Shown here: positions 7,128 to 8,485 of the stretch, one piece after another | Position numbering within the stretch: the stretch's first letter is position 1 | How the letters are laid out: each line of letters begins with the position of its first letter | Source: a bacterium | Lineage (GTDB): Bacteria > SAR324 > NAC60-12 | Length of the DNA stretch: 10,426 nucleotides | Assembly (NCBI GenBank): GCA_965233585.1 | Contig: CBDDTI010000399.1 | Location: 1 to 10,426 of the forward strand | Direction: 5' to 3' | Program-made: the position numbers and the translations under genes | The notes under the pieces: model-generated | The model's database searches: none | Told to the model about the DNA's origin: nothing | The model's input: only the letters and a program-made list of their open reading frames with translations

Positions 7128-7886
7128 TTATTGATTTAGACTTTTACGACATCTGTACAACGACATAACACTGACGCCTAAAATGTGAGCCATATTTTTG
7201 ACGCTTAAATATCGCAATTTGGATTCTTTTAAAAAGGCATAAGCGCATGCAGCTAATAAAGTTCTTGGAGCAAAAGAACTATTTTCATTTTTTTTTAATA
7301 TTTGTTCAATGGACGTCATTTCTTGATAATTTAACTGCAGCGGCTGTAAAAAATATTCTTTCATATCTTTCGCTTTTATGTAATTGTCTAATTTATTCAT
7401 GTCAGTCAAATCCCGTCTGTATAATTTCATCCAACGCCACACTATCTTTGGATTAACGCCGACTTCTTGACACAAATGACTTATCGGGCGGGGAATTTTT
7501 TCTTTTATCAAACCTTGATATAACGTCATAACCACCAGTCCTTTAGCATCTATTTTAATTTTTCCACCTTTTCGATGATGCCACGCTACTATATCTGACC
7601 ATAGATTAAAAATAACATTTGTAACATCATTATTTAAATGTAATTTATTGCATAAAATTTTTAAAATATTTTTTTCTTTCTCTAAATGCCGGTTTTTTTG
7701 TTTAATTTCTTCATCAAATGTTTTTATTTTGTCCAATTTTGTTTCCAAATTTGATTTTGTTAAATTATAGCAATATATTTTATCAATAACTAATCCACAC
7801 TCGGTACACACCACGTCCCCTTGCCTGGTGTCTTCTACTGGATATTCATGATTGCATATTTTAGTATAATCTACTTTCTCGTGCAT
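7128..7886 (-). CDS. TFIIB-like transcription initiation factor (252 aa)
   Basis: Zn ribbon CNHEYPVEDTRQGDVVCTECGLV (compare TFIIB CPNH..VEDYRAGDMICPECGLV). Two cyclin-fold repeats: LCNKLHL..LYQGLIKEKIPRPISHLCQEVGV and FLQPLQL..PRTLLAACAY..SVKNMAHILGVSVMSL. First ATG is at 7886 (the track starts at a TTG). Confidence 0.9.
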   Translation of the reverse strand: MHEKVDYTKICNHEYPVEDTRQGDVVCTECGLVIDKIYCYNLTKSNLETKLDKIKTFDEEIKQKNRHLEKEKNILKILCNKLHLNNDVTNVIFNLWSDIVAWHHRKGGKIKIDAKGLVVMTLYQGLIKEKIPRPISHLCQEVGVNPKIVWRWMKLYRRDLTDMNKLDNYIKAKDMKEYFLQPLQLNYQEMTSIEQILKKNENSSFAPRTLLAACAYAFLKESKLRYLSVKNMAHILGVSVMSLYRCRKSLNQ

Positions 7887-7942
7887 AATTTTGATGTTTA
7901 TTGTATAAATATTAAAACTCAACTAAATAAACATTATTCACA

Positions 7943-8485
7943 TCATTCGATTTTATATTTTTTTAATAATTTAATAATAATTTTTATTCCTTGTTTAGCA
8001 TCTTCTTCGCTGGAGGCTCCAATTATAACTATTTTTCCCGACGAAAATATTAAAGCTGAACACTTTTTTATTTTTAAAAATACGCCTGGGAATTTTTCTG
8101 GGTCGTATCTCTTATGAATGATTTCAAAGTCTTCATTCAATTTTAAATGGTTGTAAAATCTCAATAATTTGATCTCTTCTTTTGATTGATACAAACAAGT
8201 CATGTTTTCTACTTTAAATATTTTAACAACAAATTCGCTATTTATAATAAGTTTTAGTTCGTCTAATGCTTTCGCAATGTGTTCTGTAGAGGGAATTTTT
8301 GTAATGTTTACGTGAAAATGTCGATTTTGTTTTGTTTTGGTAAATATAATAAAGGAATATTTTTTTCTTATTACAACAAAATTATTATAACGTTTTATTG
8401 TATTATCGGTATTAAAAGAAATTTCGTCACTGTTAATAAGATGAACTTTACAACTAATTTTTACATTGCTGACCAGCACTTCCAT
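7943..8485 (-). CDS. TATA-binding-protein-like factor (180 aa, core domain only)
   Basis: The C-terminal repeat FKVENM..YDPEKFPGVFLK..SALIFSSGKIVIIGASSEE is clearly TBP-type. The N-terminal repeat is diverged (VSNVKISC..NNFVVIR..FIIF..VNITK). First ATG is at 8485 (the track starts at a TTG). Confidence 0.9.
   Translation of the reverse strand: MEVLVSNVKISCKVHLINSDEISFNTDNTIKRYNNFVVIRKKYSFIIFTKTKQNRHFHVNITKIPSTEHIAKALDELKLIINSEFVVKIFKVENMTCLYQSKEEIKLLRFYNHLKLNEDFEIIHKRYDPEKFPGVFLKIKKCSALIFSSGKIVIIGASSEEDAKQGIKIIIKLLKKYKIE

Follow-up and report, generated by a model that had tools for sequence, protein, structure and literature searches.

The window, a stretch of 10,426 nucleotides (nt) that makes up the whole of contig C399 in an assembly of 747 contigs and 12 Mb that is deposited as a prokaryote (hereafter G000), carries a truncated copy of a Polinton. 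On its minus strand, between the major capsid gene and the genes for a small QRGxG-motif protein and an integrase, lie two adjacent genes encoding a TATA-binding protein (TBP) and a transcription factor IIB (TFIIB). Both open reading frames (ORFs) are uninterrupted and stand where the initial annotation had placed them. The spacings are likewise as it gave them: 6 nt between the ATGs of TBP and capsid (8486-8491), 56 nt between TBP and TFIIB, and 9 nt between TFIIB and the ATG of the QRGxG gene. The features central to what follows are these:

7128..7886, minus strand: short TFIIB, 252 amino acids (aa), with a zinc ribbon (C11, H13, C27, C30) and two cyclin repeats, and no B-reader motif
7943..8485, minus strand: core-only TBP, 180 aa, with an altered DNA-binding face (K9, N60 and T96, each valine in cellular TBPs)
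7952..7957, minus strand: canonical TATAAA within the final codons of TBP and 71 nt ahead of the ATG of TFIIB; a candidate host-type (early) promoter
8410..8417, plus strand: candidate capsid promoter box TATTAAAA, placed antisense in the reading frame of TBP and 82 nt ahead of the ATG of the capsid gene
8492..9513, plus strand: gene for the major capsid protein, interrupted at ~9513 by a repeat of unrelated sequence

A conserved gene pair in one Polinton clade

Profile and structure comparisons uphold the identity of both proteins. TBP matches Pfam PF00352 (E 4e-19), and its model (pLDDT 92.5) adopts the two-repeat saddle fold, which Foldseek aligns to the human TBP core with E 3e-10 at 21% identity. 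Fold scores are similar for cellular and giant-virus TBPs, and the best structural match in BFVD is 16% identical. TFIIB matches the zinc ribbon profile PF08271 (E 7e-7), and TFIIB chains top its fold search (E 2e-8). Its family profile aligns to human TFIIB across the ribbon and both cyclin repeats with E 5e-11, against E 0.047 for Brf2, and a distant relative exceeds the Pfam TFIIB cut-off.

The TBP keeps the intercalating aromatic residues and has exchanged others on the DNA-binding face. We aligned the window protein with 109 of 125 matches, those of at least 150 aa (n = 110). N7, N94, F48, F132 and F147 are invariant in all 110 and position 36 is Phe or Tyr (Tyr in 24); the window TBP itself retains all four intercalating phenylalanines and both asparagines. 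The hydrophobic valines of the DNA face (yeast V71, V122 and V161) are not retained. Their positions are now polar, as K9 (109/110), N60 (110/110) and T96 (103/110), counts that are somewhat inflated because the profile that collected the sequences itself holds these residues. Yeast numbering follows Table 1 of PMC12529657, transferred with the help of strand register and two archaeal TBPs; for N60 the strand register decided, since the automatic alignment slipped two columns in one archaeal row. Our literature search found no paper on the base-by-base contacts of the TBP valines. In the C-terminal stirrup, E130 is kept in 106 of 110 sequences.

The TFIIB is the more reduced partner. A B-reader-like motif occurs in none of the 151 full-length ribbon-bearing relatives (of 193 examined), and the linker joining the ribbon to the core is short and variable, and is modelled with low confidence. 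Loss of the B-reader could in principle yield a dominant-negative TFIIB, and both features would suit a pair directed against the host, whose members would act as decoys or repressors by sitting on promoters or sequestering RNA polymerase II (Pol II). Such decoys would be expected to keep host-like specificity, yet the DNA face of the TBP has diverged in a fixed way, and a matching box stands in front of viral structural genes (see below). We consider a decoy role improbable.

The pair is not limited to the window copy. In the assembly, 42 TBP matches merge into 41 loci, ranging from 100% to ~37% identity, and at all 41 TBP is followed by TFIIB and QRGxG. At 40 the integrase comes next and at 40 a capsid gene lies opposite TBP; a contig end and a partial, rearranged copy account for the departures. 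Outside the assembly, 7 of 10 loci chosen by integrase alone have TBP-TFIIB-QRGxG upstream, five of the seven coming from one assembly and one (L043) being nearly the same element as another locus, L033. In two of the remaining three the upstream DNA is shorter than 700 nt, and the third is an element of a more distant type that lacks the pair. Five metagenome loci chosen by TBP comprise two with the block from capsid to integrase, two that end inside the pair and one with TBP only. The gene order is kept in elements at ~30% identity.

Profile searches of public data returned 212 clusters for TBP (E ≤1e-5) and, for TFIIB-like proteins, 257 representatives (1e-10), both counted by sequence. Scans of viral contigs with five alignments found only one element of the clade and one unrelated virus contig bearing TFIIB. 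A 290-aa TFIIB-like protein is encoded at 9826-10698 of L034, an unrelated virus contig with ribonucleotide reductase, chaperonin and ligase-like genes as judged by eye. Short contigs from four sequencing runs (at most two samples, possibly the source sample) span the TBP-capsid and TFIIB-QRGxG junctions, at depths that do not measure copy number. The runs listed as carrying the sequence included no RNA data set, a result that bears in neither direction on expression.

Selection has maintained both genes. Between copies, TBP dN/dS is 0.12-0.25 in the six informative pairs of eight, with one saturated and one identical pair set aside, and TFIIB dN/dS is 0.13-0.26 in seven of eight, with one near-identical pair at 0.45 (interval 0-1.16). 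These ratios indicate purifying selection and are similar to those of protease (0.08-0.27) and penton (0.12-0.26), with QRGxG at 0.05-0.15. They exceed those of integrase (0.055-0.074) and ATPase, which is the one observation that could suit recently captured or neutral host passengers. That explanation is refuted by selection, recurring order and linkage: dN/dS lies well below 1, and the order is fixed at ~30% identity. Nor do recent retrocopies of host genes fit ~21% identity to human TBP and more than 200 related clusters. Fixed linkage and purifying selection across copies also bear out the view of the pair as integral viral genes, and we conclude that TBP and TFIIB have long belonged, under selection, to one Polinton clade.

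The assignment to Polintons draws on intact copies. Complete elements on contigs C77 (2501-25350) and C30 (1001-23886) of G000 span ~22.9 kb between ~540-bp terminal inverted repeats (TIRs) that are 99% identical, and encode integrase, family B DNA polymerase (PolB) in pieces, and homologues of ATPase and protease. The window matches the C77 element over 8457 bases at 96%, from the TIR (1059-1603) to position 9513. We regard the window copy as truncated because its capsid ORF matches intact copies only to ~9513 and then gives way to unrelated repeat DNA. The A32-like ATPase and adenovirus-like protease score above the Pfam cut-off in a relative, L048, and below it in C77. PolB, whose gene lies outside the window, shows its motifs in pieces; the separate pieces have no Pfam match, and one from L048 matches the PHROG DNA polymerase (E 3e-4). 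The capsid label is less firm, with a double-jelly-roll match (PF21738) in L048 at E 3e-4, below cut-off, and no solved relative found by sequence search. A check for target-site duplication found a 6-mer near both ends of the C77 element, at asymmetric ends, and none evident at C30. By its TIRs and length, PolB, rve integrase, and ATPase with protease, the element is, as judged from sequence, a Polinton.

In C77 (8353-14086, locus L021), C523, C401, C98, C593 and L033, the PolB gene falls into collinear pieces separated by gaps bounded by GT and AG. Some gap positions are common across subfamilies, and the gaps point to spliceosomal introns. The flanks carry ORFs that look retroelement-like by eye. 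Because the PolB gaps end in GT-AG and the flanks hold such ORFs, we take the window to be eukaryotic DNA within a prokaryote bin.

A candidate late-promoter box and its possible readers

We inspected the 130 nt before each gene in 18 elements and scored a box, TAT[TCG]TAA[AG], at -115 to -20. The box precedes 15 of 22 capsid genes (0.57 expected), in 10 of 11 lineages, and 6 of 11 each of the ATPase genes and the small genes after them (0.27 expected each). It is absent before integrase (0/16), TFIIB (0/18) and the first PolB ORF (0/12), and present before TBP once in 17. In an exhaustive ranking of 4483 patterns, TAT.TAA came top, again in 10 of 11 lineages. Canonical TATAAA shows a different distribution, being enriched before TFIIB (9/18, 1.7 expected) and PolB (5/12, 1.1 expected). 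Its occurrence before penton (7/16) we discount, since five of these seven sites overlap the final codons of integrase. Two other candidates were dropped: canonical TATA before capsid, where TATAAA occurs 1 time in 22 with 2.0 expected, and a bare TAAG element of the baculovirus kind.

The capsid box lies antisense within TBP codons, and some box occurs there in 17 of 18 elements. All 39 intact TBP ORFs of the assembly have one in the same place (24 TATTAAAA, 14 TATTTAAG and 1 TATGTAAG). Within it, leucine is TTA in 14 of 14 cases (per-gene background 2/13 to 9/13) and serine is always AGY, while the next codon ends in T and the following one begins with A in 17 of 17. Between groups the box moves by about four codons relative to the protein alignment with its DNA sequence kept. 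None of the boxes of the ATPase gene, the gene that follows it or the second capsid gene falls within the TBP frame. An antisense capsid box inside the TBP gene would explain why the two genes stand head to head with almost no spacer.

The best reading of these observations, to which we give a probability of about 0.6, is an orthogonal TBP-TFIIB initiation pair through which host Pol II would be led to late promoters. Transcription of PolB, TBP and TFIIB would come first and rely on host factors, after which the viral TBP would bind TAT(T/C/G)TAA(G/A) boxes that host TBP would read poorly, and the viral TFIIB would bind its C-terminal stirrup at E130 and dock the zinc ribbon onto host Pol II. 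Capsid, ATPase and neighbouring virion genes would be switched on together, and through the antisense capsid box the pair could also turn down its own TBP gene. What the sequences show directly is the identity, linkage and selection of the two genes, the residue changes and the distribution of the motif; DNA binding, TBP-TFIIB pairing, polymerase recruitment and timing are steps that we infer. The initial annotation had proposed a virus-specific initiation complex that recruits host Pol II to capsid promoters, and the sequence comparisons support that proposal, none of the checks open to them having spoken against it. Its analogy with herpesviruses appears stronger for the altered DNA-binding face and the candidate late box.

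Several observations weigh against this reading. The motif was selected after inspecting these sequences, and related elements are non-independent samples. Among virion genes the box is mostly missing before penton (2/16), protease (0/16) and QRGxG (1/18), and the ATPase gene and its follower have it in only 3 of 7 lineages. TBP, expected among the host-transcribed genes, has no enriched canonical TATA (3/17, 1.7 expected). The form found in the window's own subfamily, TATTAAAA, departs from the clade consensus TAT(T/C/G)TAA(G/A), though it fits herpesvirus TATTWAA. Whole elements are not enriched for the motif, and across nine elements 76 of 98 sites precede no ORF, with 22 that do against ~5 expected. 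Distances from box to ATG range from 34 to 112 nt. The capsid box sits in coding sequence, where the P value of its Leu column rises from 2.8e-4 to ~0.13 after correction for 459 columns and is no longer significant; a Ser column in TFIIB gave a lower score. On the protein side, the first stirrup acid is mostly Asn (87/110).

Many of the same points would fit a general initiation booster, which would act at most promoters of the virus with no special sequence preference, for instance under host stress or silencing of the element; the box would then be read by host factors or reflect codon constraint. The virion genes that lack a box, the variant capsid box of the window and the coding position of the capsid box all agree with such a role, and viral TBPs have been proposed to escape host regulators such as Mot1 (Ravarani et al., PMC7221094, as far as the text consulted goes). 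A booster would not account for the invariant polar substitutions on the DNA face of TBP, for boxes before the ATPase gene, the gene after it and the second capsid gene that lie outside the TBP frame, or for a box whose DNA sequence stays the same as its place in the protein alignment moves. We judge a booster unlikely.

A further explanation keeps a dedicated pair and changes the partner, which could be host RNA polymerase III (Pol III) with a Brf-like factor, the polymerase of a helper giant virus, or the integrase, with the pair guiding its targeting. Some relatives carry the automatic JGI label 'Brf1/TFIIB', and the nearest ESM Atlas clusters are largely viral, some of them from Nucleocytoviricota. 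The pair lies two genes from the integrase, and a solved complex of Ty3 integrase with TFIIIB exists, to go by the title of its entry. Set against this, TFIIB ranks far above Brf by both profile and fold, and the GT-AG-bounded PolB gaps point to nuclear Pol II. Runs of T stop Pol III, and runs of at least five T occur in all 51 capsid, 33 ATPase and 18 penton ORFs, where they would halt it. Pol II is favoured over Pol III on these three grounds, and the whole group of explanations seems to us quite improbable. No RNA polymerase match was found among the ORFs scanned, a subset comprising 15 of the C77 element, 12 of the window and 16 of L033.

Returning to the orthogonal pair, a fuller version can be put forward tentatively, at somewhat less than even odds. 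The elements would form a large unannotated Polinton clade with an early-to-late cascade, run by the smallest viral initiation machine yet proposed. In it, a specificity-switched TBP, convergent on the herpesvirus mimics, and a reader-less TFIIB would be all that is needed to recruit host Pol II to a private TAT(T/C/G)TAA box, and the antisense box in the TBP gene would couple capsid expression to the factor's shut-off.

To our knowledge, little is known about when Polintons express their genes and whether they form particles, and two conserved factors together with a candidate late promoter offer a direct test. If the orthogonal pair is borne out, integrating viruses of 20 kb would join giant viruses and herpesviruses as carriers of their own basal transcription factors, and a polar TBP face for reading TATT-type boxes would prove to have arisen convergently. 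The need for the B-reader in Pol II initiation could be tested with a TFIIB that naturally lacks it, and a two-gene orthogonal promoter system could serve as a tool. On the practical side, these genes contaminate prokaryote bins and carry labels of cellular TBP or Brf1.

Other parts of the window and related elements

The remaining features of the window are the TIR and five further ORFs:

1059..1603, no strand: TIR, ~540 bp, 97% identical to the TIR of the complete C77 copy
3170..3571, plus strand: accessory ORF, 133 aa, found in related copies; no family by Pfam at cut-off
3568..3873, plus strand: accessory ORF, 101 aa, found in related copies; no Pfam match
3882..5621, minus strand: putative minor capsid (penton) gene, 579 aa, labelled from position and size; no Pfam match
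5628..6716, minus strand: retroviral-type integrase with a C-terminal chromodomain, 362 aa; Pfam rve E 5e-9 (above cut-off), Chromo E 8e-5
6717..7118, minus strand: QRGxG-motif small basic protein, 133 aa, the gene next to TFIIB at all 41 TBP loci

The gene in the penton position is conserved at the same place in distant elements. The QRGxG product is probably a virion core protein. G+C content is 0.26 and 0.31 in the TBP and TFIIB ORFs, against 0.32-0.43 in neighbouring viral genes and 0.49 and 0.43 in the flanks. The TIR contains a 53-bp tandem array (1212-1529), and a non-coding stretch beside it (2450-2975) holds two ~63-bp imperfect direct repeats with a period of ~300 bp. The GC-richer host flank at 313-1060 has broken ORFs and is possibly a retroelement gag region, with a weak Myb/SANT match. 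At the other end, the repeat that interrupts the capsid gene (9514-10426) is a separate one, with a second occurrence on contig C212 of G000 at 89-93% identity.

Related elements are numerous and varied. In G000, 35 contigs carry this element, and prokaryote genome records (G000 as a whole and L043-L049) contain Polinton-rich eukaryotic contigs. Subfamilies at ~40% TBP identity, on C401, C58, C98, C93, C593 and related contigs, have two tandem capsid genes, ~40% and 53% identical to that of the window; in C593 and C93 both are preceded by a TATTTAAG box. C106 and C284 match ATPase, PolB and protease, with no match to TBP, TFIIB or capsid, and are probably internally deleted. Two PolB gaps hold antisense genes: a 380-aa repeat-rich ORF in C77, and a dUTPase gene at 3747-4175 of L033, a 20.6-kb Polinton contig filed under a giant-virus bin in IMG/VR.

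Comparison with known systems

The element shares TIRs, PolB, rve integrase, A32-like ATPase, adenovirus-like protease and capsid genes with the Polintons, Mavericks and adintoviruses described in the accessible parts of PMC8502044 and bioRxiv 10.1101/697771. In those parts (Starrett et al.), the label 'TBP' is confined to the legends of figures on midsize viruses, which come from non-animal datasets and have an adintovirus-like PolB, and TFIIB is not mentioned. The initial annotation knew of no such pair in Polintons. Our literature search found no description either, though subscription papers, figures, bioRxiv supplements or Repbase may hold one; the part of the claim that needs qualifying is TBP, given the label in the figure of Starrett et al. 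(PMC8502044), which may or may not denote a member of the present family. Terms for the pair are absent from the consulted portions of PMC11071308, PMC11131425, PMC10120064, 10.1101/2022.05.25.493380 and 10.64898/2026.08.29.747986. The pair is real and conserved, and probably undescribed in print. New here are the altered DNA face of the TBP and the promoter box embedded in its frame.

Relative to the cellular TBP-TFIIB core (PDB 1C9B, 1VOL), the pair has the same folds, stirrup Glu, Phe pairs and Asn pair. It differs in its ~21% identity, in a shortened N-terminal stirrup and in the replacement of three DNA-facing valines and one threonine. Its TFIIB, unlike the cellular one, has no B-reader and is ~60 residues shorter.

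Among large double-stranded DNA viruses, TBP-TFIIB pairs are common and have been proposed to be orthogonal to those of the host (Ravarani et al. 2020, in the text available from PMC7221094). The terms Polinton, Maverick and adintovirus occur in none of the four searchable supplements of that paper, one further file being unreadable. The initial annotation held that viral TBP and TFIIB usually accompany a viral RNA polymerase; that needs widening, for they also occur in giant viruses that lack one, such as Chrysochromulina parva virus BQ1 (PMC12085832, sections consulted). Giant-virus pairs resemble the Polinton pair in joining both factors in one genome as a proposed pair, and in the polymerase-less viruses the pair is likewise proposed to redirect host Pol II. 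Giant viruses differ in encoding further transcription factors, whereas the Polinton genes are adjacent and in fixed order within an integrating element. Unlike the Nucleocytoviricota transcription system, they sit in TIR-bounded elements of 20-23 kb with no match to a multisubunit RNA polymerase in the scanned ORFs.

Poxvirus VITF-3 is likewise a viral TBP/TFIIB-like heterodimer that defines a temporal promoter class. As set out in the available text of PMC12917281, it works with a viral polymerase in the cytoplasm, has low sequence specificity and is highly modified, whereas the Polinton pair keeps canonical folds and comes without a viral polymerase.

A further close parallel may be the late system of beta- and gammaherpesviruses, in which, too, a viral protein with a TBP fold acts without a viral polymerase (PMC12529657, in the parts seen, as for ORF24 below). 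KSHV ORF24 has Asn where yeast TBP has V122 and V161 and the Polinton TBP has N60 and T96, and it reads TATTWAA late promoters. Both proteins keep four Phe and two Asn, carry polar residues at V122 and V161, and are associated with promoters of TATT rather than TATA type. ORF24 differs in being large and multidomain, in binding Pol II itself through an N-terminal domain, in lacking the TFIIB-binding acids and in needing five more viral activators. The Polinton TBP is a 180-aa core that keeps E130 and has a separate viral TFIIB; its K9 (V71) has no ORF24 counterpart, and no late activators of the herpesvirus type were recognised among the scanned ORFs. By analogy, the module would work as the late system of herpesviruses and the pairs of giant viruses do, while being a member of neither.

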